From a virus: a stretch of DNA of 25,751 bases. The stretch covers positions 1 through 25,751 of IMG/VR virus record IMGVR_UViG_3300031994_000480. The stretch is one strand, 5' to 3'. The number at the start of each line of letters is the position of its first letter. Position 1 is the first letter of the stretch. Both the position numbers and the translations under genes were made by a program. The notes beneath the pieces were generated by a model that did not search any database, was not told the origin of the DNA, and saw only the letters and a program-made list of their open reading frames with translations. This document shows positions 1-25,751 of this stretch, piece after piece.

Positions 1-127
1 ATCTACTAAAATACTTCTTGGCACAATTACATTATCATTATAATCGCCTTTATCTTGATGATATTCCGCACTTGAAGCCCAAGTTGTTAATTCATTTCCA
101 CTGCTACCAGCCATTACATTACCTCCT
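1..127. repeat. Terminal direct repeat, copy A; identical to 25625..25751 (circular-contig overlap or terminal redundancy)
   Basis: Base-by-base comparison of the first 127 nt with the last 127 nt shows identity. The gene starting at 25738 continues seamlessly from position 114 of copy A. Confidence 0.95.
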
Positions 128-1151
128 CGCTAGCATTAGCAAGAGCCAATGATATTACGCCATTTGCGTCAATGCTGATACCAGTGCCCGCAGAATAACT
201 AGGAACTTGGCTTAAAGCATTATCGACATAATTCTGCGTCGCATACCCAGTTAGACTTTGATGCGAAGTTAGATATCCAGCATCGTTCGTAAAAGCACTT
301 ATATTAGTTGGCACTGTTGGGATAGTTGGTTTATCTTGTAAATCATTATAAGACAAATCAGTAGCATCAACGCTAATTTCGTTATTCGCATCTATATCAA
401 TGCCAGTGCCTGCGGTATAGGTAGCACCGCCACCGCCTCCGCCAGATGGAACAGTCTCCCAAGACTTGGTTGATGTGCCATTTGAAACAGTATCTACAAG
501 CATATAAGTGCCGTCAGTAGATGGGAAGGTTGGTAAAGACTGTTGATATAAAGCAAATAAATCTTCCATTATTGTATTGGTTCCTGACATAAGACCTGTT
601 TTTATCAAACCACCCGGTCTGCCGCCCCAAAAATAACCCGTTATCTATCCATTGGCTATCGAAAAGTTTAAATTGGTAGCCCAGGTATTGCCCGAATCTA
701 TTACAAGACCAAATAATTTATAAGAAGACATATATGTATTTCGAGGACCGGGCTATATTATTTTAAAAGGAAACAAAGCGTAGGAATATGAAGAAAAATA
801 ATCTTCATCATATGGTATAATTTGATTTTCAAGAGAACTCTCATTGGTAGCATATATCACATATTTATCTTCAAGTCCATTTTCTATATCATCGATAAAA
901 TTAGTAAATAACTATCTTTTTTCAACCGGTATTGTAAAAATAGAAGTGCTAGTGCTAGCGGATATAAATTGTGGATTAGAATTTATTCGAACTATAACTA
1001 TATATCTTTGCTATGCTCCACTACTTCCGCCGGCATTTTCCGCCACATATTCTTTGATATTTTTGCTTAATTCGAGCAGTCCTTCTTTATTAACTAATTT
1101 ACCACTATTAATTAATTCATAATCAGTTGCGGGATTAATTTCGCCTGCCAT
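114..1151 (-). CDS. Fibre / receptor-binding-type protein (about 345 aa) with a poly-Gly hinge and xAGTGIxIDANxxIS motifs
   Basis: ATG at 1149-1151 follows AAGGAGGGG. Four in-frame TAGs start at 1011, 912, 753 and 645 (+ coordinates), and the same frame holds throughout. TAA stop at 114-116 overlaps the next ATG (TAATG). Confidence 0.7.
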
Positions 1152-1166
1152 TATAACCCCTCCTTA

Positions 1167-1736
1167 TTAGGAAGCAGAAGCAGCACTCCAAATAGTATCG
1201 ATATCATTATTACTCAAAGTCTCAATAGTGATTTGAGTATCTCCAATGATTTCCCAAGCATTATTAATATAAGCATACTCGGTATAAACATTATTGGTGC
1301 CTGCGGTGCCTTTTGCTACCAAGTAAATAGTAGAAGTAGAAATGTTTGTGGTAGGTAAAGTCTGGACGATTTCAAAACCAAAAGTAGTAATGTTGCCAAT
1401 AGCAGAAGTAATATCACTCATAGTAGCAACCTTATTAGAAGAAGCATTATAAGCGGTATTAAATACTAATTCATCCTGCTTGCCGCTAATGTCTGGGATA
1501 TCTGCCATAGTCGCAACCTTGTTGCTAGTAGCATTATAAGCGGTATTGAAAGCAAGAGCGTCCTGCTTACCGCTGATGTCAGGAATGTCTGCCATAGTTG
1601 CGGCTTTATTAGAAGTAGCATTATATTCAGTATTAAAAGCCAAGGTATCCTGCTTTCCTGCTACGGCTGACTTTACTAATCCACTGTAATAAACTAATTT
1701 ATCACCGGTTAAAACTTTATTATCATAACTTGCCAT
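1167..1736 (-). CDS. Fibre protein with three tandem 29-aa repeats (GKQDxLxFNTxYNAxSNKxATMxDIxxIS)
   Basis: ATG at 1734-1736 follows AAAGGAG. TAA stop, no TAG. The repeats are visible in the translation. Confidence 0.7.
   Translation of the reverse strand: MASYDNKVLTGDKLVYYSGLVKSAVAGKQDTLAFNTEYNATSNKAATMADIPDISGKQDALAFNTAYNATSNKVATMADIPDISGKQDELVFNTAYNASSNKVATMSDITSAIGNITTFGFEIVQTLPTTNISTSTIYLVAKGTAGTNNVYTEYAYINNAWEIIGDTQITIETLSNNDIDTIWSAASAS
1404..1658 (-). repeat. Three tandem ~87-bp coding repeats inside the fibre gene
   Basis: Near-identical nucleotide blocks, e.g. gtagcaaccttattagaagaagcattataagcggtattaaa and gtcgcaaccttgttgctagtagcattataagcggtattgaa. They encode the 29-aa repeat. Confidence 0.8.
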
Positions 1737-4492: not shown

Positions 4493-4714
4493 ATGGCAAA
4501 ATACGCAATGTTCTGTATCTGTAATGGGGAATGTCTGTTTTTCTTCACTTATAATTCATTCGACGAAGCAAGAGACGCAATGAAGAAAGAGTATCAGCAA
4601 GCCCTTATCGATGAAGGTTATGACCCCGAAATGGATGAGACTTGTGAAGCAGACGACTTCTGCTGGATACATACTATGGACCACATTGGCTGGTATATTA
4701 AGCCTTTGTTTTAA
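4493..4714 (+). CDS. Small Cys-containing acidic protein, paralog 1 (73 aa), unknown function
   Basis: ATG at 4493, TAA stop, no TAG. Shares MAKYAMFCICNxEC...YNSF...AM.K.YQQAL...WIH..DHI.WYIKPLF with the next gene. Confidence 0.7.
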   Translation: MAKYAMFCICNGECLFFFTYNSFDEARDAMKKEYQQALIDEGYDPEMDETCEADDFCWIHTMDHIGWYIKPLF

Positions 4715-4761
4715 TGCTCTATCCAACCTATTATATAATATATAAGAAAGGAAACAAACTA

Positions 4762-4986
4762 ATGGCAAAGAAATACGCGATGTTTTGTATCTGTAATGAA
4801 GAGTGTCAGTCTTTCAACACTTATAATTCATTCTACGAAGCAGAAGAAGCAATGAGAAAAGCCTACCAACAAGCCCTTGGCGACGAACATTATAATGATT
4901 ATGACGCCGAATGGGATGATGAAGCAGACAAATACTGGATACACAGTGCCGACCACATCCATTGGTATATTAAGCCCCTGTTTTGA
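4762..4986 (+). CDS. Small Cys-containing acidic protein, paralog 2 (74 aa), unknown function
   Basis: ATG at 4762 follows the duplicated ttatataatatata...aagaaagg leader. TGA stop. The ORF-track start at 4714 is an upstream extension. Confidence 0.7.
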   Translation: MAKKYAMFCICNEECQSFNTYNSFYEAEEAMRKAYQQALGDEHYNDYDAEWDDEADKYWIHSADHIHWYIKPLF

Positions 4987-5019: not shown

Positions 5020-5905
5020 ATTCCTCTAAACTTTCTTCCTCTTCCCAAACAACAAAAGAACAAGCACAGTTAGGATGGTATGGCGGCAATTCGATATTTA
5101 TATGTGCGTCCTCTAATCTCACAGGGTCGCCATCCACATAATCCAAACAAATCCCACCACATTCAGCGTCTCCTACGATTTCCACATATTCAACGCCTGC
5201 CTCTAAATAAGTATCTATCAGTGCTTGGTTATAAAAAGCCATCGTCTCGGTCTTTATTAACCGAGCAGTATCATAGGCAGTAGCATTCGTGAGTTCTCGC
5301 CAAGCCCACTTCATCCACTCCATACCCTTGCCATTTGTTAGCCCTTCCCGCAGTATAAAATCTAATTTCTTCTAAAAGTTTGCGGTGTGCTCGTATAAAC
5401 GCTGGCTATAAGTTTTTCCATCGCTACACCAAGGGATAGGAAGCACTTTACTTGTAATATAAGTATCTGTAATTCTTACCTCTGCTTTTGCTTGAAGATG
5501 CGGTGGCTATGTATTATCTTTCCACATAGGGGTTCTTTGAAGAATAATATAAACATCTTTACTCCCTTGCTGATAAGTATTTATAAGACTTTCAGTAATA
5601 ACATTATATGCTATCCACTGTCTTTCAGTCATTCTCCATACTTCACGCATCTACATTTCTTTTATCGCATATTCAACAGCAGGAAACTTACTCAAATCTA
5701 TCTTGCGGATATCCCCTATATAAGGGTCCCGCAAATACTTCTCAATAATGGTTTGGAGTTCTGGTTCTAACTCCTCCCACATTTCATTCATTATCTCATC
5801 AAGTAATTGATACAACTCTGCGGTTTTTTCATAGGCATCAGCCAATACCTATAACACTTGACGCTGAACGCGTTCAGTCTTCGTTAGTTTGCTCTTTCTC
5901 TTCAT
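5018..5905 (-). CDS. Head morphogenesis protein (SPP1 gp7 / Mu F-like)
   Basis: C-terminal ECGGICLDY...ELPPYHPNCACSF motif. Four in-frame TAGs start at 5849, 5651, 5507 and 5372. TAA stop. The ATG at 5903-5905 is uncertain (weak RBS, overlaps the portal end). Confidence 0.7.
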
Positions 5906-7262
5906 AGTTCTTCATAGCACCAGTAGAGTAATTTAAACTCGCAGATTGTAGGAATGGGTTATTCATTTTGCTCTTCTCTTGCTCGCTAGCGAGTTGCTCC
6001 TGTTCCGCCTTCACATCTTCAACGAAAGGCACTTGTGCCAAGAGGGTCTTGTTAGATACAATACCGTCAAGACTAGAAACCATTTGTGCCAACTCACTCA
6101 AATTAGTAGGAATGTTGCGTCTAAATACAATATCAATAGCACGCCAATCAAATGACGCACCCATCAAGCCCTGTATCTGTGCGATAAGTTCAAAACGCTG
6201 TTGTAAGCCCTTCTTAAACTTACGCTCCTTAATAGATACCAAGTTTTCAGTCCCCAAAGTCTTAAACTGTATCGCTACGCCGCTACTATTACCAGCAAAG
6301 TTTTCATCACTCATATCGGGGCAGTGAGCGAACTTATGAATATCTTTATCCAGGCGGACTTTCATATTTTCAGTAGTTGTATCATTAGCATTTTTAATAA
6401 GCCATTCCGCCGAAGTGCCTTCGTCCATCAAGAGCACTCTATTCTCTTTCATCTTTGCGATGTCTTCTGGGTCTGCGGTAAAGCCATAAAGTGCCAAATA
6501 AGCATCTACGAAGTAATCAAAATCATTTACCGTATCGCTTTCCATTACATCATAAGCGTCGATAAGACTAATTACAGTTTCAAAGTCGCCTAACTGCTCT
6601 TCATTATTCTTATAAATAGCAATAGGAACCATACCAAAATAATGTGGTGTAGTTTCAACCAACTGGAAACTTCCTGCTTGCGTGCTTTTATAAGTGAATA
6701 CTTCTTTATCGGTATAGAGTTCTGCGATAGTAGTTTCTTTATTATCCTACAAGATATCATTAACAGTATAATATCGAATAAATGCGGTTAAGTTGTGTTC
6801 GATAGTCTCATCATAAATAGGAATACATTCTTTTGGGTCAAGAGCACAAAAACGCAACATAGGACGCCCCATACCTTCATCCTCTTGCTCCATATAAAGT
6901 AATTCATATGCTATACCATAGATGCTTGCGTTCTTTGCTAATTCAGTATTTTCATCAGCCTCATCATTATATTCAAGTATCATCTATAATTCTTTAAGCA
7001 TATCAGTCTCTTCTGCGTTATAAGTGATGGGCTCGCCCACAAAATAACCCACTAATGAACTAGTAATAAGATTAGCATAAGGATTTACGATTTTATTATT
7101 TGGCTTTGTTGGGTCTGCCATTGTTCTATCATTTATGCTGTGCTGCCCGACATAATACTTATATAATTTCACCAGACGAGCCAAATCACGCGTCTTATGC
7201 TAATCTACAATTTTTTTTACTAAATCTGGGGTATAAACCGTATCTTTTGATAAAGTAATCAA
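5874..7262 (-). CDS. Portal protein (SPP1 gp6-like)
   Basis: TTG start at 7260-7262 lies 7 nt after GGGAGG. KLYKYYVGQHSI and later portal-like blocks. Three in-frame TAGs start at 7200, 6984 and 6747, and four ORF-track pieces share one frame. TGA stop. Confidence 0.85.
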
Positions 7263-7275
7263 GGATATACCTCCC

Positions 7276-8517
7276 TTAAAACAATAATTTTTTATCGAGA
7301 GTATTCAACTATACTCGTGCGTCCAAGCACTATAATGAATATCGTAAAGCGTCTAAATAGTGGTTCCATTTGTCAATAGGCTCATTAATATACTCATTAG
7401 TCTGCTTGTCTTTCGTCCAAGAATAATTCTCTAATTCTTCTTTTATATTTACACAAGAGGGGTGAATGATTAACTCATATTGCTACAACTTTTGAATACC
7501 TTGTAATACCGAACCTTTGCCCTTGACGCTCGGCTTGGCATTACGCAAACCCATTTGCCGCAACTCGTCTATACTCTTTTGCTCCGCACTATCACATATA
7601 ATAGTAGATTTTGCGAAACCTAATCCACTTATCGCTTGTGCGATTTGATTATTAAGAAATCCCGTGCCACCCCACTCTTGAAATACATAGATGCGGTTTT
7701 CTGCGGGAACCAAGAGAGAAGCAACAAATGCGGTTGGGTCATTCGTGTATCCAAAGTCGCATCCGCATAATAACTAACCTTTTATACTCTTGGCATCAAA
7801 ATCCATTACTTGCCAATTATTATACACTAATTTTTCAAGAGAGCCAAATTCACCAAGAGCATAAATAGTATAATAAACAGGATTAGTTTCTTTCATACGC
7901 AAGAGTGTATCAATATACGCTTGCGGCAAGAACCTATTATGTAAATAATTCGTCTTAATTATATTAACATTACGCCGCAGTTCCATCATTTCTGGATTAT
8001 CTGCGAAAAACCATAAATAGCACCAATTTGCTTTTGATACTGGGTTGAATGACAGTATTATCTACTGCCCGGACGCATATGGGTCTCTTACACGCAAATC
8101 AACCTGGCTAAAATCATCCGCACAGAACTCTGTCGCTTCTTCCAACCAGGCATCAGTGAGACCTACTATTGACTTTATTTTCTCGGTGTCATCTAAACCG
8201 GAACATAAAAACTAACTTCCATTTGGTAAAGTAATGCTGTAATCCGTTCTATTTACAACACATTTATTAAGTATATTAAAGTTCGTTAAGGTATCCAAGA
8301 GCAACTAGAATGTAGATGCCTTGGTGGTGCGATTTACCTTGCGGAGAACCAGTATCTTGCGGACATCCTTCAATGCTTTAATAACTAACTTCTACGCAAC
8401 AAATACACTTTTTCCTGAACCTGCTCCGCCATAATATACTTCATAGCGTTTAGAGTAGTCCAAGAGATAAGGATAATAAACAGAATTAAATACATTCTTA
8501 TGGATATTAAGTTTCAT
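7276..8517 (-). CDS. terL: Terminase large subunit
   Basis: Walker A YYGGAGSGKS, followed by LEEATE, SFNP, CGCDFGY, FQEWGG and DALRYSL blocks. Eight in-frame TAGs start at 8392, 8305, 8212, 8062, 7774, 7483, 7330 and 7309. TAA stop at 7276-7278. Confidence 0.9.
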
Positions 8518-8911
8518 TTTTATCCCCAACAATAGAGACTTCAATCACATCTTTGGTTTCTACCTTTTGGTTCTGTAAGCCCAGATTTTTACTCAATAGG
8601 CTTAAAGCATTTAGTTTAGCAGAAGTAGTATAAACTTCATCGCCCTTCTGTGCGAATGCTATGCTCGCTAATTCACTATTAACTCTGTATGCGTCGATAC
8701 CCATAGCGTCATAGATTTCCTTTTTACGCATTTCTAGGTATTCTCTTACTTCTGGTTTCTGTAATAGTTTATATGGAGAAGCATTAAGTGTAGATTTATT
8801 AGTGATACCAAAAATATCTCTATAAGCATCCTATGCTTTATATCCATTAGATAGATATAATTCTACAAATGCTTTCCATTTAGTTTCTGGTGTTTTAGGA
8901 TTATAGCCCAT
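8507..8911 (-). CDS. terS: Terminase small subunit (Terminase_2 / P27-like)
   Basis: ATG at 8909-8911. YLSNGYKA[TAG]DAY resembles the NATQAA helix-turn-helix motif. One in-frame TAG at 8831-8833. The TAA stop overlaps the terL start. Confidence 0.7.
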
Positions 8912-10379: not shown

Positions 10380-10925
10380 TTAGGTTGTCAAATTTGGGTC
10401 AGTCTATGTATAATCAACTTTGCGGAAAGGCATATGCTAGCCCCGCAAATAACTAATAATTGTCTTCCAGCGATGAGGCACTTTTCCAATAGCCTATCGT
10501 GCGGTTGGATAGTATTCTATTCTGTTATCCTCTTGTTTATATATTACCCATAGCGGTTTATCTAAACCATATTTTCTTTTTGGATAAGATGACCTATTAT
10601 TCTAATTAATTTTAGCCGTAGCCCATCGCAAATTACTTACAGCATTATTTAATGGATTACGGTCAATATGGTCTATCTAATCCATTCCTTCTGGTTGCGG
10701 CAACCAAGTTTTTGCTATTACTCGATGCCAATACTCTTTACAATAGCGTAATTTACCGTTATCATCTCTCCAATAGTAGGAAAAGTAGTAATAATAACGG
10801 ACGCTTAAATTTGGTTTTCGCAACTTATTAGTGCCTTTAACACGAATATGACCTAGATTAGATGCTTCATATTCTTTTGTTGGGGTGTGCTTCAAACAGG
10901 TAATTGGTTTCCATTCTTCTCGCAT
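10380..10925 (-). CDS. HNH homing endonuclease (NUMOD4-type N-terminus, HNH core, C-terminal DNA-binding tail)
   Basis: EEWKPI...YEASNLGHIR, then D[TAG]IDHIDRNPLNNAVSNLRWATAKIN[TAG]NN. Five in-frame TAGs start at 10677, 10602, 10494, 10437 and 10404. TAA stop at 10380-10382. Confidence 0.8.
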
Positions 10926-11104
10926 TTTAATCGCTCCTATTCAAATATCTCCGCAGACCGTTTAAGATATTCTGCTATCTTCTACATTTCTTCTTGCGAT
11001 AACTATTCAACTATTCCAGACGCATATTTGCGTAATCTACTATAAGAAATGCCGGTCGCAGATGCGAGTGAAGCCTTATTTAATTCTTGTATAATATCTC
11101 TCAT
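10892..11104 (-). CDS. Small helix-turn-helix regulator (Cro/Xre-like)
   Basis: ATG at 11102-11104 follows AAGGAGTG. Sequence ASATGISYSRLRKYASGIVE[TAG]LSQEEM[TAG]KIAEYL. A third TAG at 10937-10939 sits at a natural-looking C-terminus just before the HNH RBS; read-through would end at TGA 10892. Confidence 0.6.
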
Positions 11105-12219: not shown

Positions 12220-12573
12220 TTAAACATATCGCAAATCAAATCTGGCTTCTATGTTAAACAAAGAAGCAGAAGTTAAAGTAATATCATTTGTGCCAGGAAG
12301 CAAACGCGGCAACTCCACACCCGCATATTTTCCCCATTTTAATTCATTATTTATTTTAAATTCTCCGTTTTCGCCATCAATAACTATTACATCATAGGCG
12401 TCAATATGCCCTGTAATTTCAATAGGATGAATGGTTAAACCAGTAATAGTTATGCCATTTAATGCTGCTTTTGGAATTAAAGTTAAGCAGCAAGGAGTGG
12501 GTGCGGTTCCAGCATTAATAATGCTGAAACCGGTGCCCTCCTCATTCACGATAATAGGATAATACTTTTCCAT
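12220..12573 (-). CDS. Dit C-terminal (galectin-like) domain encoded as a separate 117-aa protein
   Basis: Pattern IINAGTAPTPCCLTL...DVIVIDGENGEFKINN...LPRLLPGTNDITL matches the C-terminal half of siphovirus distal tail proteins. Own RBS (AAGGAGA) and ATG. No TAG. Confidence 0.55.
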   Translation of the reverse strand: MEKYYPIIVNEEGTGFSIINAGTAPTPCCLTLIPKAALNGITITGLTIHPIEITGHIDAYDVIVIDGENGEFKINNELKWGKYAGVELPRLLPGTNDITLTSASLFNIEARFDLRYV

Positions 12574-12585
12574 AATTGCGTCTCC

Positions 12586-15500
12586 TTATTCAACTAATGA
12601 TAAATTGCTATCTTCGTAATAAACCCAGCCTAATGAGGTGCGAAGCCAGTTTGTATCTCTCTTGGTTTTTTCTGTAATATATACTCGGTCTCCTGCTAAA
12701 TAACGACCTAATTTGTAAGTATCATTTTCGTCTTTGATAGGATATTCATAATAATTAATGCTATCATTTGCGACAACATAAAGTTGATTTACTGGTATTC
12801 TGTCAATATAAGTGTCATCGCGGCAAATCCAACAGTCTAAATTATCCAAAAGATAATAGTATTTATCGTCATTACTAAAATATGCTTCTGCGATAACTCT
12901 TACAACTTCTTTTTTATGAGTGCTATTCGAAAATGAGTATAAATCACGCGTCATTTTAGGAGAGATATCATTATTAGTAGATGGAATAATAGCAGTAATA
13001 AATGGAGTAAATCCATTATTTAAGGTTCGTAATACAATATCAGTGCGTGAAGGAGTAAATGCTTTTATACCAGTAGCATCAGTAGGATTTGAAGCATTTA
13101 CATCTAATTTTACTTTATACCATTTTTTATCGATGGAACACCATTGGTCGGTTGTGTATGTCGCTGCGTTATCTCTACTTACATAAGCATATCTTTCTGC
13201 GGGAACAACCATTCCAGAAGGTATTGCTACTTGTGCTCTTGCTATTTCGTTTGGATAATTATAAGTCCAAACTTTCGCAGATGTTTTATAGAATGTATAA
13301 GGTGGAGTAGTTGGAATAGTATGGTCGATTGGATTGGGTTTATCATCATAATAATTATAATCGTGCTCCATTGGATTTTCATTAATAGTATTACGATAAC
13401 TTCTCTTATATACTTTTCCATATTGTCTATCTGGGTCTGCCGCACGCGTATAGCCTCTACCGTCCTAGGCATATGGATTAATAATATCAAAAAATCCATC
13501 TTTTAATACTTGGAAGAAAGGTGCTGTTGAAAGGTTCATATTTTGCCATAAACAACCCGCATAATTAGGCACATAATATGCTAATAGATTATTATTGCGG
13601 TCATAAAATTTAATTCCGTGATATATACCTCTTGTAAGGCACAATCTTGTATAGCCATCAGCATTTTCACCAGATGGAGAGTAGTCAGGAATTTTTAAAT
13701 CATAAAAATCGCGTTCTGTGCTATTAATTACTCGTGGTGCGTAGGCTTTATCTGTATCCATAAGATATTTTGGTAATCTAGAATTATCATAAGGTATTTT
13801 TGCTACTGTGCGAGGATAAGGTGAGAAAGGAGACCTATAAAATCTATAAAAGGCTTTATCTTCTCGTTTAAAAATGCCCCATAATCCGTTTTCTTTTCGA
13901 GTATTATATATATTTTGAACTTGCTGGATAGCGGCTAGGTTGTTAATCGACATTAGATATTCTATATCATCATCTAAATAATGAGAAGCAACACGAGCGA
14001 CATTATACAGCGATGAATTGTTTCTATGAGCAGAATAATAGAATTTTGCATCGTTCCACTGCCGCCAAAAATAAAAACCAGCCCCATCAATTGGAATATA
14101 ATTACTGTTAGAATTATGAGTATAAGCAGTAAGTCCATTAGAACTAAAATAATTCTAATACGAATTCGCTTTATCAGTTATAAAAGGCTCTTCTAATTCA
14201 AATACTACGCCCTCAATTTTATCATAACCAGTTGGAGGATAAAAGATAGAACCTTCATCTACGGATTTAATTGGATAAGCATAGTATTTATACTCTCTTG
14301 GAGGCTGGAAAGGATAAAGCACTTTTTGTGTTCCTGTTCTTACTAATTCTTCAAAAGTAAAATAAATATGCTCGTCGTCCCAAGGATGCGGGTTCCATAA
14401 GAAAATTCCATCATTATACTTATGATTAGAATTAAATAGATTTTTACCTACACCAAAAAAGTCCCAATCTAAACTAACTGGTGCGGCACGATAAAGTTCT
14501 GGAAGAATTTCTTCTCCTTGGTCGTTAGTCTGCCAACTTGTCTCTATAAAATGGTCCCAATCAGGGTTCCAATCTCCAATAGAGCAAGACAACATAGCAG
14601 AGCCTAATTTATAATGTTCATCTATGGCAGGAGAATAATAATGGATATTATAATGATATATAGTTTCAGGATAAACAATATCTAATTCGTGTAAATCACT
14701 GATATCATTATAAGTAATAGTGCCATTATAATTAACAGTCGCAGGTTCGTGATATCTTAATTTCTTTTTTTGTATATCAACTACATCTTGAAGAACATAA
14801 ACATCATTCCAATCAACTTCATCCAAATGAATAACATCTAGTCCAATAGCGTTATATAATTTACCACTTTGATTAAGACTTAATTCTTCAACCTTAACCC
14901 AACAATCATAGTTCGAAGCATAAGCCCACAATCTATCAACAGTGAGTTTAGTAATGGTAAGATTAGCACCAAATGGAATTGTTGTATCTAATTCAGTATT
15001 TGGGTCATAATCAGGATTTTGTCCTGGACCTTGGATGCGGTCAATAGCAGAAAGTAAAATCCAACCGTGATAATACTCTTTTAATCTGCCCCATCCATTA
15101 CGCTCTTCCATAATCGTAATTACTTCATCCTTATGAACGAAATAAGCCAATGCCCTATATCTGCGGGCAGGTCCATAATGGATACCCACATATGGATTAT
15201 TTATACGGGCTTGATAAGGTAAGAAGTAATCAGTTGGCTCATCTTCATAATACGCTTGATGATAGTGATTTTGATATTTAGTTGTGCCTGTTGGATTTAA
15301 TACTTTTGCGGTTAAATTACAGTCGAGATAATTTGGGTCTATATTCAAAGTAATAGTATTATCTTCACTTGCTCCACCACGATAATACTCCGCATAGAAT
15401 AAATCAGGACGCTCTAATTTAGTATATTTATCATATACAACCACAGGAGCAGGAGCATCAAGGAACGCCGCCATATCATTATTTGCTAATAAAGTATCAT

Positions 15501-18500
15501 TAAAGATTAATCTACCATTTGTAAAATCGTCGGTTTTATAATAATCTATTTCAATCGGCAAATCTGTAATACTATTGGCTTGTTCTATATCGTGTAAATT
15601 AAAGAACAAATCTTTTGAACCTATTCTCATATTATCATTATAATAAACGACGCTCTTTGAGAAAGAACGATAACGATAATAGATATTAATAAGACCTTGT
15701 TCGTAAATATCTTTTAACTAAAATTGGTCGTAAGGATTATCTGGGTCATCTGTATCAATTAAACCATTTAAATAATAATCATTTGGTTTAAAATCATCAC
15801 AATGAAGTTGTTCTGCGAATGTAGAAGCATTTGGGTCATACCATACAGGAACAGCAACACTTTGCTGTGCGATAAGATTATTTTGTTCGTCATAATAATT
15901 CGCACCAACATTACCAAAATAGCAAGGGTCGTCCATAACCATTAATGGAATAACATCTTTGGCAGGGATAGTTATTTTTTCTTCTACCATAGAAGTTTCT
16001 AATACATCGCCCTACTGAATAATACCATTTGGCATTATAGCACCATCTTTTAAATGAGTTTCAGCAATGGTTCCAATATATGTTCCACCCTCATTACAGT
16101 TAGTGAAGAAGATTTCTGTAACCAAATCAAATAAACCATTTTCTGGCATAATTTGTCCGGCAATTTCTTCTCCTTTTGCGACAGGCACTAAATCACGGAC
16201 TAATTTATCTTGGTCCCATATTTTAATACCCCAAACCATACACATTGTAGGCTCTGGTTCAGCAGGGGCTCTCCAACTAGCAAAACCAACATACATTGAT
16301 GTTGAATGGCTATATTTAACACTTTGAGTATTTTTTCCTGACATAGGAATAACTTTGCCATCTGGTGTTGTATAGTATTGAGTATCTTCTGTTGTGCCTA
16401 AATTTTCTAACATAATTTCGGTTTCTATCGTTCGCTAAACATCATAAGCATAATAAGGATTTAAAAAGTTTTGACGCAGTGCGGATGGAACTCCATACAT
16501 AGTAGATAGTGCCCCAGAAACATTTGGATAAGCCAGATGACAGAATGGATTTTGATTAATTATTCCGCTATCTGGATTACGAGTAGCAAATAGAGTTAAA
16601 GAACCTCTTGGATGGCATCTTACTTCAAAACTATCTTTATCATCGTTGTTAGAAAAATCATAATAGCCATATCCATTACCGCTACCAAAATCATACGCCG
16701 TGCTATATTTTCTATAAGCACTTAAAGTATGAGTAATAGGAACAGCAACATCGAATTGATTAAAGCCATTATCAAGAGCGTGCTATGATAATTTCATTTT
16801 AGACCCGTGGTCTATATCATTAAAGAAACTACTCTGGCTCATTCTTTCTCCAATAGAAGCATTATATTGAACCTCATAATTACTATTTTCTTTAACGATA
16901 TTATAATTTTCGTCCATTGAAGTAGATGCTCCATTACGGTAGGTCGCACAACTACTATTCCATTTAGTTATTCCGCGATTAACATCAACAACTACTCCTA
17001 CCAAAGAGCCATCTTTTGTATCACGATAAGTAGTGCTGTATTTTTCTCCTTCCCAAGTCGCTGGTGTATATTCATTATATACAACAGGCATTCTAACAAT
17101 AGGAACACGACCGCGGAATGCGAATGTGCCAGTGCCATATTTACCTATGGTTTTTTCATCATCGCCTAATATGAAATTATTAAGTCGATAAGATGTATCA
17201 CCTAAATCCCCAAGAATTTCAACTGGGAAAGCCGCAGCATAACCGAATATACCCATATAGTCCAAAGTCTAATCAGTATAATAGTTTTGACGGTCATATA
17301 AAGGAGTTACTGATTTAGAAACATATTTCATCTCAACGGTCAAACGACTTAATTCTTTTGGAGTATATCCTAAATCTATATATGGAATACGCCCACCCGT
17401 TTTAATAAATAGAAAATGGTCATATTGATTTCCTGCCGAGTGAGTATAGTTCCTATTATTAGGACCAAATCTAGCATCCCAAAATAAGACCTTATTTAAT
17501 CTATTTAAAGGAATAGCGTCTGGTCCGCCAGGTTCAATAATAGTATCATAAACAATATCAATACCTGCTTCAACTAATTCTTCAAAAGTATAAAGTCTAT
17601 TAGTATTTTGTAATACGCCATAATCGCACTTAACAGGTTTAAATAAATTGACATATCTATTAGGCAACTAATCAACTAAATAAAATGGTCCATCAAAATC
17701 ATCTATTTTAACCGACCAAGTTGTAGTCGCAACCTAATTTAAAATATCTACATCATCTGTGTAATAACGAATTTCAATTTGTTCTGTTGTTGGCAAATAA
17801 CAAATAATATATTCGTTTTTTAGTTTAGAAGGACTATAAAGATGTTCGTCCATTTTATACCACTGATAACTTTCACCAGAGCGATAATACTTTTCTGGTT
17901 TAAAAGCATCCCAGTCAATATAATAATCAATAAATTCACCTTCACGGAAATCGCTCGCACCCAAGGTAAGAGTTATATTACCAAGCGTTTCATAAGTATG
18001 AAAACCAAATACTTTCTTAATATATTTGATATTAGTAGTATAAGTTGGTTCTTCTCCTTCAATAGGAGTATAAACAATATCATAAGGTGCGTGTGCGATT
18101 ACTCTTCCCAAGGTAACTTTTGGCTCTGGAAATACATAATTAGTTTCATAGCCTTCTGGTTTATACTTATTCAATCTAATCAATTCACCAAACATAGGGA
18201 CTTGATAGAAGTCTTTTTCAGTAAAAACCAAACTCTCTGTTGCTAACAAGTTTGCCGGGTCATTAGTATCTTTATAATAACGAACTTGTATTACATTTTC
18301 TTGCTCTTCATATACAACATTAAATACAAAGTTCTTTAAGTTTTCAAAATTAATTTCACCTAAATCAGTTAAATTAACGATTTGTCCTGGATTATAATAA
18401 AGTGGCTGATGTTCGGTTATTTCTAATTTCGCATCTAAATCCCATTCTTCTTCAAATTCATCACCACGATAGAAAATCTAACGAGTTTCAAAGATATAAT

Positions 18501-21423
18501 CGCCTTTATAATAATTTACATAGAATGAGCCAATTTGCTGAACTGGGTCTGTAATAGGATAACTATCATCATCACGGATATTAAAACTATTTTGACCGGT
18601 AGCATCTTCAAAGAAAGACTGACTTACTTTATCATACAAGCAATTACTAGGAGCAACTTGCGAACCGATTTTATCATAATACTGAACCGGGATAAGGTCT
18701 CTTACCACTTCTCCATCATATTCAATAATACAATTATAAATCTCAATTCCTGCTAAACCGCCAGTATAAACGCCAGCATTATTATTCGCAAATAAATAAA
18801 GTGGGAATGGCATCCGTGCGTGGTCTGTTGCTACTCTATTAGAGTAGTTGAAAACAGCAACAGAATAACCGTCCGCACTAGGATTACTATAAATACCAGA
18901 ATTAGGACCCCATCCAATCGCATTACTTTCTGTTAATACAAGAGGAGCACTATGCTGACCCGCCCTAGCCTCATAAGTATTTACGCCACTTAAATTAGTG
19001 CCATACATTGTTTGGTTGTTAAATCTCATAAAGTATTCACCAAAAGAAGAAGAACTACCAAACAAATAAGCATAACCGGCATTTACTTGGCTCATTGGTG
19101 TATATTCATCAACTAATCCGCACTTTATCTTAACAGTTAATTTACTCATATCTTCACAAGTAAAGCCTGTGTTAATATAAGCGTGCGGGAAATGCCAATT
19201 TGGATGCTGTCCTTCATATCCGCCTAAATCATTATGCTGTAAGAATAACACTCTGTGAGGATATTCAATATCACCTGGTTCATCAGGCTCACTTACAGTA
19301 TCATAAACAACATCAATACTAGTAAGTTCGCGTAATGCGGTGAAATTAACTGGACCGCGATACTGGACGATACCGTCTGCCGCGAATACATTCTTATACT
19401 GATTAATTTTTAGTCCTAAATCAATAAGAGTAGTGTCCGCGGAAAAATCAATAACACGATAATTAATAGTATCACTGCCAACCCAGTTTCTAACATCGAC
19501 ATCATCTGTATAATAATTTATAACAGTGTAATAAGTAGAAGCATAATATAATACGCTATAACTGGTTGCCAAAGTTTCAAAAGTAATTACCTGGCTATCA
19601 CTTACTCCATCCAAAATACCAGTTTCATAGTATTCTGGCTTATGTGCGTTTAGGTCAATGATATCTTTAAGCCGTGCTCCGCCAATCAATTCATTCTCGC
19701 TAACAGTAATAATCGCTGTGCTAATAGTTGAAAAAGCACTTGCTAACTGTTGCTTATAACGAATAATAATATCTTTCGTGCGAGTAGTCTAGATTTCAGT
19801 ATAAATAATATAAATAGGCTGTGCGTAAGTTAAAGCATCTAATGATACTTCGCCTTTATAACTCGCCTCTGGGTCAAATTGATATCCAGTAGGTTTATGT
19901 CCTGTAATATCAACAATATCTCCTAACAAAGGCTGATTATAGAACTGCGTGATATTTATATTAATAGTTTCTTCGGTGTATAAATTACTGTCATCTTTCT
20001 TATAGCGAACAGTAAGAGGATATTCAATAGGCACATAATAAACCTATAAAGCACCCGCTTCAATTACACTATCAAAAGTATGATATAAACCAGCATTATA
20101 CAAAACACCGTTTTGATAATTACCAGTAAGATATTTATCAAGGTCTATCCCGATATTTTCTAAACTGAAATCTTCTTCATAACTTGAATTATATTTCAAA
20201 AGGATAGGAGATGTAGCAAGACGATACCAATTAGGATAAGTGCCCGCATAGTATTCTATATACACTACATATTCTATTCTACGATAATCAATGTAATAAG
20301 ATGTTTCAAGTTCATCGTAATTAACGAAGTCAGTGCGGTTATGACTATCTATGTAGCCAGGGTGATAATACTCTGGGGTTGGACGCCAAGCGTCAAAATT
20401 AAAAATGTCTTCAAATGTTGTTCCTTCAACGATACGAGTTTCAGGGACAGATACCAAAACACTTTCAATAATGTCATATTCTCCATTATCGTTTTCATTA
20501 CGATAAGTTAAAGTGATATTTTTAATTCGGTCATCATCGATATGAGTATATTGGACGAAAATAGGACTTGCCGCAAGCAAGTTTTCAACAATCAAACCTT
20601 GATTATATAAAATCTTCGCACTATATCCTTCTGGACGATAATTATTTACTTTAATTAATTCACCAACAGAACGCATCGCTTGGATTTGCGGATAAGTGAA
20701 AGGAATAGTTTCTTGAAGGCTCTGTTGATAGCCACTGCCACTATCAATAATATAACGAACTTCAACGCTATACTGAATGGGCTCATAATTAATGATAAGA
20801 ACGCCAAGAGACTGTAAGTTATCATAGGTTAATTCCATCAAGCCTAAATTAGAAGCAACACCAGATTTATAATGTTCGTCCTTAAACTTATCAACATCAA
20901 TACCAATAGATGATAAAGTTGGAGTTTCTTGCTCGCTAAATGAAACAGAACGGATAAGAACTGTATCCTGTCCTACGAAAATGTTGCCGTTTTGATAATA
21001 TACTACATTTAAGCGGAAAGTGCTAGTCGCACCAATATCAGTTGTATATACTTCTCTATCTAATGAACGAGCATATCCGCTAGCCAAATCATATGTAATT
21101 AAAAAATTGCCATTCTTTAAGCGAGAAGGCTTATTAGTCCCATTAAATACAACATCAAATTGAAAATCTAAATCATCAAATTTAATAGTTGCTTTCTTTA
21201 ACATTTGGGTTAATTGGCTCATTTTTAGGAATGCCTCTTGTTCGTCTGGTTCGAGAACCAAAAATGTCAAAGTCATTTTCTTAAAAGTGTCCTATGAACG
21301 AACATAATATGGCTCTAAACTTCCATCCGCCCATTCATTAACCGCTTTCACTGTATTGGAGGTAAGTATTCTGTCATATAACTTTATATTTAATGAAGTT
21401 ATATCAATTCCATTAATAAGCAT
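12586..21423 (-). CDS. Giant tail protein (2,945 aa): Dit N-terminal domain, ~10 beta-rich ~80-aa repeats, three lectin-like modules and SH3b-like segments
   Basis: ATG at 21421-21423 follows GGAGG. Ten ORF-track pieces plus the gaps between them (all checked codon by codon) share one frame. Thirteen in-frame TAGs start at 21292, 20044, 19789, 18478, 17734, 17668, 17269, 16783, 16435, 16012, 15718, 14155 and 13465. No TAA or TGA occurs until TAA 12586-12588. Confidence 0.8.
17734..21050 (-). repeat. Protein-level array of ~75-85-aa repeats (..V.YY.DD....(K/R)PEGY..), MucBP-like by pattern
   Basis: Recurring strings RYYTDDVDILN, NYYTDDVDVRN, VRYYKDTND, NYRPEGYSA, NKYKPEGYE, GHKPTGYQ, AHKPEYYE, WRPTPEYY and FKPEKYY. 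The copies are too divergent to be DNA repeats. Confidence 0.5.
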
Positions 21424-21435
21424 TTATTAACCTCC

Positions 21436-22002
21436 TTATCTATAATTAAATACCGCATATATGTCTTGTAAAGAGTTATAATGCTACATTACACCCTTAT
21501 AATATAATTTACTTTGCTTGTTTTCGATATCAAAAATCTATCTCTATAATTGAAGAGATTTTTCTAACGCTTCATATTCCTTGCGTCTGGCTTTTTCAAT
21601 AGCAGTCTATTTAGCGAGTATCCGCTCTCCTATTCTTTTGGTTTGCGGCTCTGCTTGTAAATAACGCAAATCTTGTTCTAACTTTTCAACTCGTTTGCGT
21701 GCCGCAGGCTCTACATTATTAATCTATTTTTTTAATGACTGTCTATATCTTCTGCTTTGAGAATTATAACTTTTTGCGTCTTTTAAGTTATCGCTAATAG
21801 ATTTACGCATATTGTTGCGTAAGTTCTTTAAATTTTCTGCGTCCTATTTTTTGAAACGCTCACGATAACCCCAATCTATTTCTTCATTCGCACCTTTATT
21901 TTCTCGATAGTATTTTTTTAAAAAACTATTATCTTTTTTATCTTGCCATTGAGATGTTATAATGCTAAATCTTCTTTCTACGGCGTCAAGAATATCACTC
22001 AT
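21436..22002 (-). CDS. Basic coiled-coil protein (188 aa) in the tape-measure position
   Basis: The ATG overlaps the chaperone stop (ATGAGTGA). Seven in-frame TAGs start at 21844, 21724, 21607, 21544, 21538 and 21484 region (six listed here plus hand translation total of seven). TAA stop at 21436-21438, followed by GGAGG and the Dit start. Confidence 0.5.
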
Positions 22003-22495
22003 TTAACAGCACCTCACATACTGACTAACGCTCTACCATATTTCCAACAGCGAACTCATCAGGTTCTGTTAAAGATATTGGAGAAGTATTGTCCTATAAA
22101 CTCTCTAATACTGCTATTTTTATTATATTTGCTAATGTCTCTTGGCGTTTTTGATACCCTTTATATGCTAATTCTATTTCACCAGGAGACATCTATAAAG
22201 CAATGTTAGGGTCTATACCAATCTCACCAACGGCTTGACTATATAGACCCTGAAAATCAATAGAGAAAAAGGAGACCTATTCAACTAATGAAGGAATGAA
22301 ACGCTTAAACAGTCCTTTTGAGTATAACTCTTTCGCCGCGGTAGGACTTAAATGATTTTCATCAAAAGTAATCAAACCTGCGGCGAAAAAATCACTCTCA
22401 TCATACTATGATAAAGACTGTAAATATATTATCCCACGCAGTCCAATTTTGAACCAGTAATCTTTACCGTCAATAGTAATCAATTGTTTATTCAT
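21995..22495 (-). CDS. Tail assembly chaperone (positional call, 166 aa)
   Basis: The ATG overlaps the major tail gene stop (ATGAATAA). Five in-frame TAGs start at 22406, 22277, 22193, 22094 and 22025. TGA stop at 21995-21997. Confidence 0.5.
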
Positions 22496-22886
22496 TAATA
22501 ACACTCAATTCTCCATTACCTAATAACTTTGCTTTGTATTTATAGGTATCATTATATGCCGCGACCAAAGGGAACTCTGTAAATAATGCTTGTCCCTTAT
22601 ATTTTTTGTTATCTAATTCTACTTCTACTGCGACATCTTGATTATTCCTAAACGCTTGCTATAAAGTATTATATGCCGCACTATCTTTTACATATAATCC
22701 ATCGCAACTAATAGACCAAGATTTTACGCCGCCCAAATACTCTTTCCAAACCGCATCTATTTTGTTCGTGATATCAATAGATGCTGCTGACTGTATCAAG
22801 GTTGCGTTAAGTTGTCCCGCCAGTTTCTCTCCCGCAATAATTATAGATACTTTTATACCCTTTTGGGTGTTATTCACCATCTTCAT
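22488..22886 (-). CDS. Major tail protein (TP901-1 / phi13-type)
   Basis: GEKLAGQLNATL..SAASIDITNK...WKEYLGGVKSWSISCDGLY pattern. ATG at 22884-22886 follows GGGGGA. One in-frame TAG at 22659-22661. TAA stop. Confidence 0.7.
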
Positions 22887-24436: not shown

Positions 24437-25738
24437 TTAAGCAATACTTACAGTCCAACCTTTTGCTGTTGCGACTGCTATTTCGGCAGCGGTAAGGTCA
24501 TCAATTCCGCCTTCATCAGTGGAATTACCTGACCCGGCTTTAAACGCAATAGTATTACCATTATTCTCAACAGCAGAAGTATCAGGTAATGTATTAATAG
24601 TTTCAACCGCACTTGTATGATTATATCTACTATATGCTAATGATTTGCTCCACCAATTAGGATTATTTTTCATTTGATTATAAGTAGTAGCATCTACCAC
24701 AGGCTCATTTTCACCAGTTCCTTCTTTAAGTGCGGCTAATTCATAACCTGTATTACCACTATAATAACCTACTCCATTACTACGCAAATCTAAATACTAT
24801 TTTTTCCAATAGGCAGTATAAGGTTGATTATTTGTGTCTAACTAAAAAGTAAAACGCGATAATCTATGTGCGGCATTTACACAATTACTAAACTAATCAC
24901 TAGTAAAAATAGTAGTAGCATTAGTAGAATGATGAGAAATAGGCACATTTAAAATCGCAGGAACGCAAAATGCCTAATATGCTAATGACGAATATGGATA
25001 CTGATATATGCTTGATGTTCCTGCGTCTTCATAAGACAAAAAACTAAAATCTATCGATTTATTTAAGCGAATACAATTACTATATATTGATGTTAAAGAA
25101 AATGTCCCTGAACTATTAATAATAGATGTATTAGAAAAATCAAATAGTTCTTGTAAATAATAACACTCATTAGCCAAGCCATTAAAATCAGTATTAATTG
25201 TGCCTGTTATATGAGGTGGTTTTATACAATTTTCGCAACCTTTTATTAACGATGCTACTGAACTACCCCTTGTAGAAGAGCAATTAATAGTTATATTAGA
25301 CAAATCTGTTATTTGAGTTGAATTCACAAACATATAACTTGCCAAAGTAATACTATTAAACTACATTTTATCGCCATACTGATTTAATACCCAAGACCAC
25401 TTATTTGAACTAAATAAGTTCTACACATTTCCGGTGAAAGTCAAATCTGCTGTTGTAGGAGTATAGCCTCCTCCTACTTCTAAATTACCAATTTCAGTAG
25501 CGAAATACTCTGGACTAATACCAGGACTACCAACAGTAGAACTAATAAAAGTATCTCCAAACACATCTACATCGCTTTTGACTGTTGCTGTTCCATACTT
25601 TTTAATTCTTATGGCATCCGCGGTATCTACTAAAATACTTCTTGGCACAATTACATTATCATTATAATCGCCTTTATCTTGATGATATTCCGCACTTGAA
25701 GCCCAAGTTGTTAATTCATTTCCACTGCTACCAGCCAT
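24437..25738 (-). CDS. BspA-type leucine-rich-repeat protein (433 aa), probable adhesin / receptor-binding protein
   Basis: Repeated F.N/GC..L..I.F patterns (LIKGCENCIKP, FNGLANECYYLQEL, IYSNCIRLNKSIDF, FSNCVNAAHRL). Six in-frame TAGs start at 25421, 25361, 24974, 24893, 24842 and 24797. Three ORF-track pieces share one frame. TAA stop. Confidence 0.6.
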
Positions 25739-25751
25739 TACATTACCTCCT
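25625..25751. repeat. Terminal direct repeat, copy B (identical to 1..127)
   Basis: Same 127-nt string as the window start. Confidence 0.95.

Follow-up and report, generated by a model that had tools for sequence, protein, structure and literature searches.

The distal tail protein (Dit) is a conserved hub for the adhesion devices of siphophages, and evolved Dits are a recognised route of host-range change. In the evolved Dits published so far, one or two carbohydrate-binding modules (CBMs) are inserted in loops of the galectin domain and the protein remains a single chain; moreover, the ring-only gpM of lambda and pb9 of T5, which has an OB fold, indicate that the ring domain works without a covalently attached galectin domain (PMC7291167). 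The present analysis concerns a Dit locus of a different layout in IMG/VR virus record IMGVR_UViG_3300031994_000480, of which positions 1 to 25,751, hereafter the window, were analysed as one stretch of 25,751 nucleotides (nt). An initial annotation, made from the sequence alone, had proposed that the Dit of this phage is split between the N-terminus of a giant open reading frame (ORF) and a separate gene of 117 amino acids (aa) that follows it, and the peptides it quoted were located where it had placed them, on the minus strand. According to the reading favoured here, the two domains of the Dit would be encoded by two adjacent genes, the ring half being extended by an adhesin arm and the galectin half being made separately and docking back onto the ring. 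The probability of this reading is estimated at about 0.75.

Both halves of a Dit were recognised by profile searches. The 117-aa protein matches the Pfam family PF22768 (SPP1_Dit, C-terminal domain) over positions 2-97 of 97 with 26.4 bits, above the cutoff of 25, and the PHROG Dit family phrog_33 with an expectation value (E) of 2.1e-11, while an earlier part of phrog_33 is matched by residues 2-157 of the giant protein (E 8.8e-6). From 1.84 billion representative proteins, 274 matches were retrieved with a profile that combined the 117-aa protein with three homologues. The nearest of these are stand-alone proteins of 112-145 aa, and the bulk are two-domain Dits of ~225-245 aa, aligned at their own residues ~130-235. 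A classical Dit profile of 232 positions was then derived from 118 proteins of 215-265 aa, picked solely by the similarity of their C-termini to the 117-aa protein. Positions 1-126 of this profile correspond to residues 1-126 of the giant protein (87 bits), and positions 128-231 to residues 11-116 of the 117-aa protein (91 bits). Since the proteins were selected by their C-termini, the match of the giant N-terminus is independent of that choice, and since the two pieces map to non-overlapping parts of the profile, they are complementary halves of a Dit broken at the interdomain linker. The resemblance to Dits goes far beyond chance and identifies residues 1-126 of the giant protein as the Dit ring/belt domain and the 117-aa protein as the whole of a galectin-like Dit C-terminal domain. 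The searches that the initial annotation had proposed for the two pieces returned Dit for each of them and no unrelated family, in agreement with its view of the giant N-terminus as Dit-like and of the small protein as the galectin-like half.

The fold of the N-terminus was assessed on an AlphaFold (AF2) model built on P0004, a database protein near-identical to residues 1-~245 of the giant protein. The mean predicted local distance difference test (pLDDT) score of the model is 75.5, with most of the first 130 residues above 80 and dips to ~50-60 at residues 21-50 and 121-130. Its best Foldseek matches are the Dits of monocin, TP901-1, SPP1, Bxb1, 80alpha, NF5 and p2 (Dit entries 9j1k, 4v96, 2x8k, 6v8i and 2wzp; probability 1.00, E 1.6e-4 to 3e-3). 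A search of PDB sequences gave no match for the N-terminal piece and chance-level basigin matches alone for the 117-aa protein. P0004 itself derives from an ENA contig of 1,303 bp, in which the giant-like residues 1-245 are followed by an unrelated helical, OmpH-like tail (PF03938) covering the last ~57 residues; this contig is probably chimeric.

Several results weigh against a two-gene Dit. The template modelling scores (TM-scores) of the Foldseek matches are low, 0.24-0.28 on the query, because the P0004 model also contains non-Dit modules and the chimeric tail. When searched alone, the giant N-terminal piece has no Dit match in Pfam or NCBIfam, and NCBIfam returned no match for the 117-aa protein either. 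Pfam searches with the whole giant protein and with nine segments of it gave nothing above threshold. Furthermore, no recognisable tape measure gene was found ahead of the Dit in family searches, so that the canonical triad of tape measure protein (TMP), Dit and Tal is incomplete.

The order of giant gene, stand-alone Dit C-domain and Tal is kept in every relative contig seen, the relatives being those contigs that carry homologues of the 117-aa protein or of the giant N-terminus. At 99, 75 and 52% identity, homologues retain exactly the length of the 117-aa protein, and the stand-alone C-domains of contigs L016 and L017 measure 135 and 145 aa. This constancy bears on a reading in which the 117-aa protein is an independent part of the baseplate or an adaptor, holding the arms or Tal or binding the host, and the Dit is a ring-only protein like lambda gpM with a C-terminal extension. 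Such a reading can point to the existence of ring-only Dits, lambda gpM among them (PMC7291167), to the solved Dits, whose C-domains are peripheral and make no mutual contacts, and to the stand-alone homologues of the C-domain, in which an additional N-terminal motif, Y[YF]PI, is conserved and some of which have a further 20-35 residues, possibly a new docking element. Against it stand the order of N-terminal half, arm, C-terminal half and Tal, kept in every relative seen, the completeness of the domain by Pfam, and the ordinary Dit C-domains that are its closest non-split relatives, and we regard it as unlikely.

In the window the two Dit domains are placed on separate polypeptides by a stop codon, a Shine-Dalgarno sequence and a start codon. 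The junction reads GTT GAA TAA GGA GAC GCA ATT ATG, the bases after TAA being GGAGACGCAATT, then ATG. The AAGGAG at 12587-12582 lies 8 nt 5' of the ATG of the 117-aa gene (12573-12571), which bears out the earlier statement that this gene has its own ribosome-binding site and ATG directly after the TAA of the giant gene; the start of the giant gene has the same TAAGGAGG...ATG layout. The spacer between the two genes is in frame with the giant gene in the window and L003 (12 nt), in L002 (3 nt) and in L008 and L009 (21 nt, with a TAA TAA double stop), and out of frame in L001 (14 nt), L011 (23 nt), L016 (13 nt) and L017 (23 nt). An evident Shine-Dalgarno sequence is present in most of these spacers, and the split with its Shine-Dalgarno and start is kept where the counterpart of the 117-aa protein is only ~38-52% identical. 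Because the split recurs in at least seven divergent relatives, including those whose giant ORFs are uninterrupted in the standard code, it is neither an artefact nor a case of read-through. The split is conserved and not accidental.

The same spacers bear on the possibility that both genes are made as one polypeptide, through read-through of the TAA or a programmed frameshift. In the window the 117-aa gene does lie in the frame of the giant ORF, separated from it by TAA and four sense codons, and the phage already decodes one stop codon. Nevertheless, spacers of 14, 23, 13 and 23 nt in relatives put the second gene in another frame, a further one contains a second TAA, and no other gene has an in-frame TAA, all of them ending in TAA or TGA. 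Since the spacers differ in length and frame among relatives, the shared frame in the window is coincidental and a read-through fusion is not the conserved mode of expression, which leaves such a fusion very improbable. Trans-splicing by a split intein was also considered and rejected: the N-termini of the 117-aa-type proteins vary (MEK, MDA, MNT, LND), with no conserved Cys, Ser or Thr nucleophile.

The giant gene is a single frame provided that TAG is decoded. In code 11 its span (12586..21423) is seen as 11 listed ORFs of at least 80 aa, all in the same frame, and each of the 13 interruptions of this frame is a TAG. No internal TAA or TGA occurs in its 2,945 codons, whereas the remaining frames of that strand contain 98 and 374. 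Judged by these counts, the giant gene is one genuine ORF of 2,945 aa with a TAA stop once the 13 TAGs are decoded; the initial annotation was right to treat it as one frame but had omitted this condition. The giant homologues of the relatives are collinear and measure 2,704-2,977 aa, and although the positions of the TAGs vary among them, collinearity is retained along ~2,400 aa with 40-60% identity. In L016 (1285..9987) and L017 (1449..9977), the giant gene contains no in-frame TAG and is an uninterrupted single called ORF in the standard code, of 2,900 and 2,842 aa respectively; both proteins begin with a Dit ring domain and are 43% (L016) and 37% (L017) identical to the window protein over ~2,400 residues. 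In L007 an apparent single frameshift (~10980..11080 of that contig) follows giant residue ~327, inside a repeat module; the scaffold has runs of N, and the frameshift may be an assembly error or a pseudogene. The idea that a once-fused evolved Dit was interrupted by a nonsense mutation or an assembly error, the split being artefactual or a sign of gene decay, or that the giant ORF is a string of small genes or pseudogenes with true TAG stops, can draw on the 11 ORFs of code 11, the L007 frameshift and the failure to find a suppressor tRNA, but it is scarcely credible against a giant frame free of TAA and TGA, TAG sites that differ among collinear relatives, the uninterrupted ORFs of L016 and L017 and a split kept at ~38-52% identity.

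Beyond the ring domain the giant protein continues for 2,819 extra residues, here called the arm (Table 1). It holds 14 copies of a ~75-aa repeat, which were first seen as self-matches in chunked BLAST and were found by an iterated profile derived from the giant proteins; in block I every copy has an E between 1e-14 and 1e-20. One repeat copy was modelled with a pLDDT of ~85 and gave weak matches to beta-grasp and MucBP-like folds. In the model of globular domain 1 (model residues ~200-370), pLDDT is mostly 62-88 per 10-residue block. Foldseek matched this domain in BFVD to predicted gut-phage proteins (E 1.4e-7 to 3.6e-4), one of which is annotated as 'Concanavalin A-like lectin/glucanases superfamily', and the PDB fold matches of the arm interior model are weak (neurotoxin Hc, LamG and YwfG, E >= 0.02). 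A '...VRDLIPV...' motif is common to globular domain 1 and the end of region 2, where residues 892-938 and 1732-1773 match each other with an E of 4e-8. The SH3-like segment reaches 23.9 bits with SH3_16, 1.9 bits short of the cutoff of 25.8, and 16.5 bits with SH3_4, and it also matches phrog_1794, the C-terminal part of an amidase, with an E of 0.002. In near relatives the last ~40 residues of the protein are conserved and are SH3-like by eye only.

Because no domain of the arm reaches the Pfam threshold and the PDB fold search of its interior is weak (best E 0.02), we infer an adhesin function instead of reading it from a family assignment. The earlier description of the insert as binding modules is no more than plausible, the concanavalin A (ConA)-like matches in BFVD and the sub-threshold SH3 matches speaking for it and the lack of any above-threshold Pfam domain in 2,819 residues speaking against it. 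Past the ~2,400 residues over which the relatives are collinear, identity falls to 10-28% for the last ~500 residues, and whole modules are present or absent; the fast divergence of the C-terminal end would fit a pattern typical of receptor-binding ends. L009 is without giant residues ~1450-1800 (window ~16024..17074) and L008 without ~2050-2200 (~14824..15274), the two being otherwise near-identical, a contrast that points to recent gain or loss of modules within the arm.

Table 1. Features of the window by position, with strand and the basis or content of each assignment; residue numbers refer to the giant protein.
Feature	Position	Strand	Basis or content
169-aa gene	21995..22504	minus	upstream of Dit
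Coiled-coil-like gene, 188 aa	21436..22002	minus	just upstream of Dit; no TMP family match, no homologue in relatives
Giant gene, Dit ring domain and 2,819-aa arm	12586..21423	minus	2,945 codons, 13 in-frame TAG, TAA end at 12586-12588
Dit N-terminal ring/belt domain	21046..21423	minus	residues 1-126; Dit profile 87 bits, phrog_33, Foldseek
Repeat block I, 7 copies	19303..21006	minus	residues 140-707; iterated profile, BLAST self-matches
Globular domain 1, probably ConA-like lectin jelly roll	18520..19302	minus	residues 708-968; AF2, BFVD Foldseek
Repeat block II, 4 copies	17548..18519	minus	residues 969-1292; iterated profile
Globular region 2	15904..17547	minus	residues 1293-1840; self-match, no family match; largely missing in L009
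Repeat block III, 2 copies	15463..15903	minus	residues 1841-1987; iterated profile
SH3-like segment	15043..15180	minus	residues ~2082-2127; below Pfam threshold
Single further repeat copy	14671..14874	minus	residues 2184-2251; iterated profile
C-terminal fast-diverging region	12589..14226	minus	residues ~2400-2945; 10-28% identity to relatives
Gene junction	12571..12588	minus	TAA, AAGGAG Shine-Dalgarno, 12-nt spacer, ATG; read from sequence
Stand-alone Dit C-terminal galectin-like protein, 117 aa	12220..12573	minus	PF22768, phrog_33, Dit profile; no TAG
Tal-like tail tip protein, 351 aa	11172..12227	minus	from ATG at 12227; PF06605, TIGR01665
HNH/NUMOD4-type homing-endonuclease-like gene	10380..10925	minus	5 in-frame TAGs
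TerL	7276..8544		8 TAGs
Portal	5874..7262		3 TAGs
Paralogous small Cys-rich gene pair	4493..4714, 4714..4986	plus	both ...YAMFCICN.EC..., no TAG
Three fibre-like proteins	114..1151, 1167..1736, 24437..25738	minus	
Direct terminal repeat, 127 nt	1..127, 25625..25751		exact

By analogy with solved Dits, six ring domains would form a hexameric hub under the tail tube. Each of them would run directly into an arm built like beads on a string, giving six arms per virion, and the lectin-like and SH3-like domains of the arms would contact the surface of a Gram-positive cell, probably of the Clostridia. Since the Tal-like protein is minimal (351 aa), the arms would be the main host-adhesion device and are the best candidates for host recognition. 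The 117-aa galectin half would most likely dock non-covalently at the periphery of the ring, as its counterpart does in one-piece Dits, and the two genes are probably translationally coupled, since a Shine-Dalgarno sequence and an ATG lie 12 nt past the TAA of the giant gene. A compact CBM fits in a loop because its ends are adjacent, but a linear arm of 14 repeats could not return to the ring. The far end of so long an arm being unable to reach the ring, fission probably went with the large size, and the split would free the distal end. Insertion at the linker and fission followed by C-terminal extension would look alike in present sequences.

The exact terminal repeat indicates a complete circular assembly of 25,624 bp, in which nearly all genes are on the minus strand and the giant gene takes up 34%. 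In-frame TAG codons occur 74 times in 8,093 codons and in 18 of the 27 genes tallied, terminase and portal included, and the stops of all 27 are TAA or TGA. In alignments with relatives, the residue most often found opposite TAG is Q, with hardly any variation at 44, 460 and 545, which are conserved sites. Residue 11 of the 117-aa protein is encoded by GAG in the window and by TAG in contigs L003 and L004, which are 99% identical, and is Q in the database protein P0001. On this codon usage, the phage decodes TAG as a sense codon, with Gln as the most likely amino acid. Recoded phages often encode a suppressor tRNA. ARAGORN found 0 tRNAs in the complete window genome and in five relatives, and an Rfam search of the complete 25.6-kb genome gave 0 matches, so no suppressor tRNA(CUA) gene was found.

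L016 and L017 share the genome layout of the window and use the standard code; TAG is absent altogether from the giant gene of L016, and that of L017 ends in TAG as a true stop. As these relatives of the same layout are standard-code, TAG recoding arose within this phage family, and as they also have the split Dit, this architecture predates the recoding and is independent of it. The relatives' contigs, at 23.4-26.1 kb, are near the window genome in size. In JAFYNY010000002.1 (NCBI, 47.2 kb, binned as 'Clostridia bacterium'), the locus is found twice, ~24.7 kb apart, as a two-copy concatemer in a Clostridia metagenome-assembled genome. Taken jointly, these features may outline an uncultured gut phage family of ~24-26 kb with an obligately two-component Dit, in which fission at the linker would have given six free-ended arms, each ~2,800 residues long and taking up about one third of the genome, with the galectin half supplied in trans by coupled translation, no conventional TMP, and TAG decoded without a tRNA in the window lineage. 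This composite picture is tentative, and the odds are somewhat against all of its parts holding together.

Upstream of the Dit are a tail terminator, a tail tube gene (PF06199) and a chaperone-like gene. Downstream, the Tal-like protein matches PF06605 Prophage_tail (E 5.8e-15) and TIGR01665 (37.6 bits, above 26.75), and its ATG overlaps the stop of the 117-aa gene as ATGTTTAA. Between the tail tube gene and the Dit, the relatives share only a chaperone-like gene of ~165-190 aa, followed in some by a short ORF of 50-90 aa. The lack of a recognisable TMP would imply that the tail is very short or that its length is set in an unusual manner.

Further genes of the window lie outside the Dit locus. 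The genes of the three fibre-like proteins are flanked by the head-tail connector genes on one side and the neck gene on the other. The protein of 189 aa has tandem repeats of ~32 aa (DIPDISGKQDALAFNTAYNATSNKVATMA...) and the one of 345 aa a Gly run; all three may serve as fibres of the head or neck or as additional receptor-binding proteins. The Cys-rich pair lies between the MuF-like and scaffold genes, on the opposite strand, and looks like a moron-style insertion. The HNH/NUMOD4-type gene is situated between the Tal and small terminase genes and is found in the same place in relatives.

If the composite picture of the phage family is true, the locus would represent a previously undescribed way to build a siphophage adhesion device. 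The locus offers a natural experiment for asking whether the galectin domain of a Dit is able to function in trans and how a hub made of ring domains copes with appendages of such great length. There are consequences for annotation as well: the standard code shreds the giant gene into many 'hypothetical proteins', and annotators would label the 117-aa protein as a truncated Dit.

With regard to described phages, a tblastn search of both halves against 50,697 deposited phage genomes gave no match, and a scan of IMG/VR with the 117-aa protein gave no confirmed relative. Literature searches retrieved evolved Dits and no Dit split at the level of the gene, although their coverage was incomplete and absence is not proven. 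Among characterised proteins, the classical Dits (SPP1 gp19.1, TP901-1 Dit and p2 ORF15) have the same two domains, in the same order and with the same fold, and are likewise followed by Tal. They differ from the window, where two polypeptides carry one domain each, the ring domain continues into 2,819 further residues and no TMP is recognisable upstream. Lambda and T5, whose ring domains dispense with a covalent galectin domain, have neither a separate galectin-domain gene nor a giant extension, unlike the window.

Outside the Dits, the arm weakly resembles repeat-built surface adhesins of Gram-positive bacteria, of the Mub/MucBP type with a lectin head, such as Lactococcus YwfG (PDB 7yl4), in that small beta-rich repeats in tandem are combined with globular domains that are lectin-like. 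The weak Foldseek matches (E 0.001-0.3) include YwfG and the MucBP domain 3nz3, and there is no Pfam MucBP match. The window protein, in contrast, is encoded by a phage and anchored by a Dit ring domain and not by a cell-wall anchor. Like TAG-recoded (code 15-like) gut phages, the window has essential genes with in-frame TAG, relatives with Q at the corresponding sites and stops that are exclusively TAA or TGA, and it differs from them in that its complete genome has no tRNA or Rfam RNA and its close relatives of the same layout are standard-code.

A counterpart to the insertion itself is P0082, an unsplit metagenomic Dit of 380 aa, in which the ring (residues 1-128) and galectin-like (257-380) domains are separated by an insert of ~135 aa. 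This insert resembles an F5/8 type C sugar-binding domain and is situated at profile positions ~129/130, the same linker point as in the window. P0082 and the window belong to the same sequence family and share the insertion point, whereas P0082 is one polypeptide, encoded directly after an ordinary TMP of 1,342 aa and before a large Tal-like gene, and the arm of the window is ~20 times longer than its insert.

The evolved Dits of Lactobacillus phage J-1, of Streptococcus thermophilus phages and of lactococcal 936 phages are likewise enlarged by extra adhesion modules, which are probably carbohydrate-binding. The initial annotation had seen the locus as an extreme case of such a protein. This view holds for the presence of Dit halves in two genes but not for the place of the break, since the galectin domain is uninterrupted and the break falls after profile position 126 and before 128, in the interdomain linker and not in the galectin loops. 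There, in place of one or two modules, the window has a linear array of 14 repeats with globular domains, and the gene is split. With a Dit ~4 times longer than the largest Dit chain in the fold search (Bxb1, 671 aa), the locus would extend the idea of the evolved Dit in three ways, namely in length, in the point of insertion and in a gene split that is stable across deep divergence.

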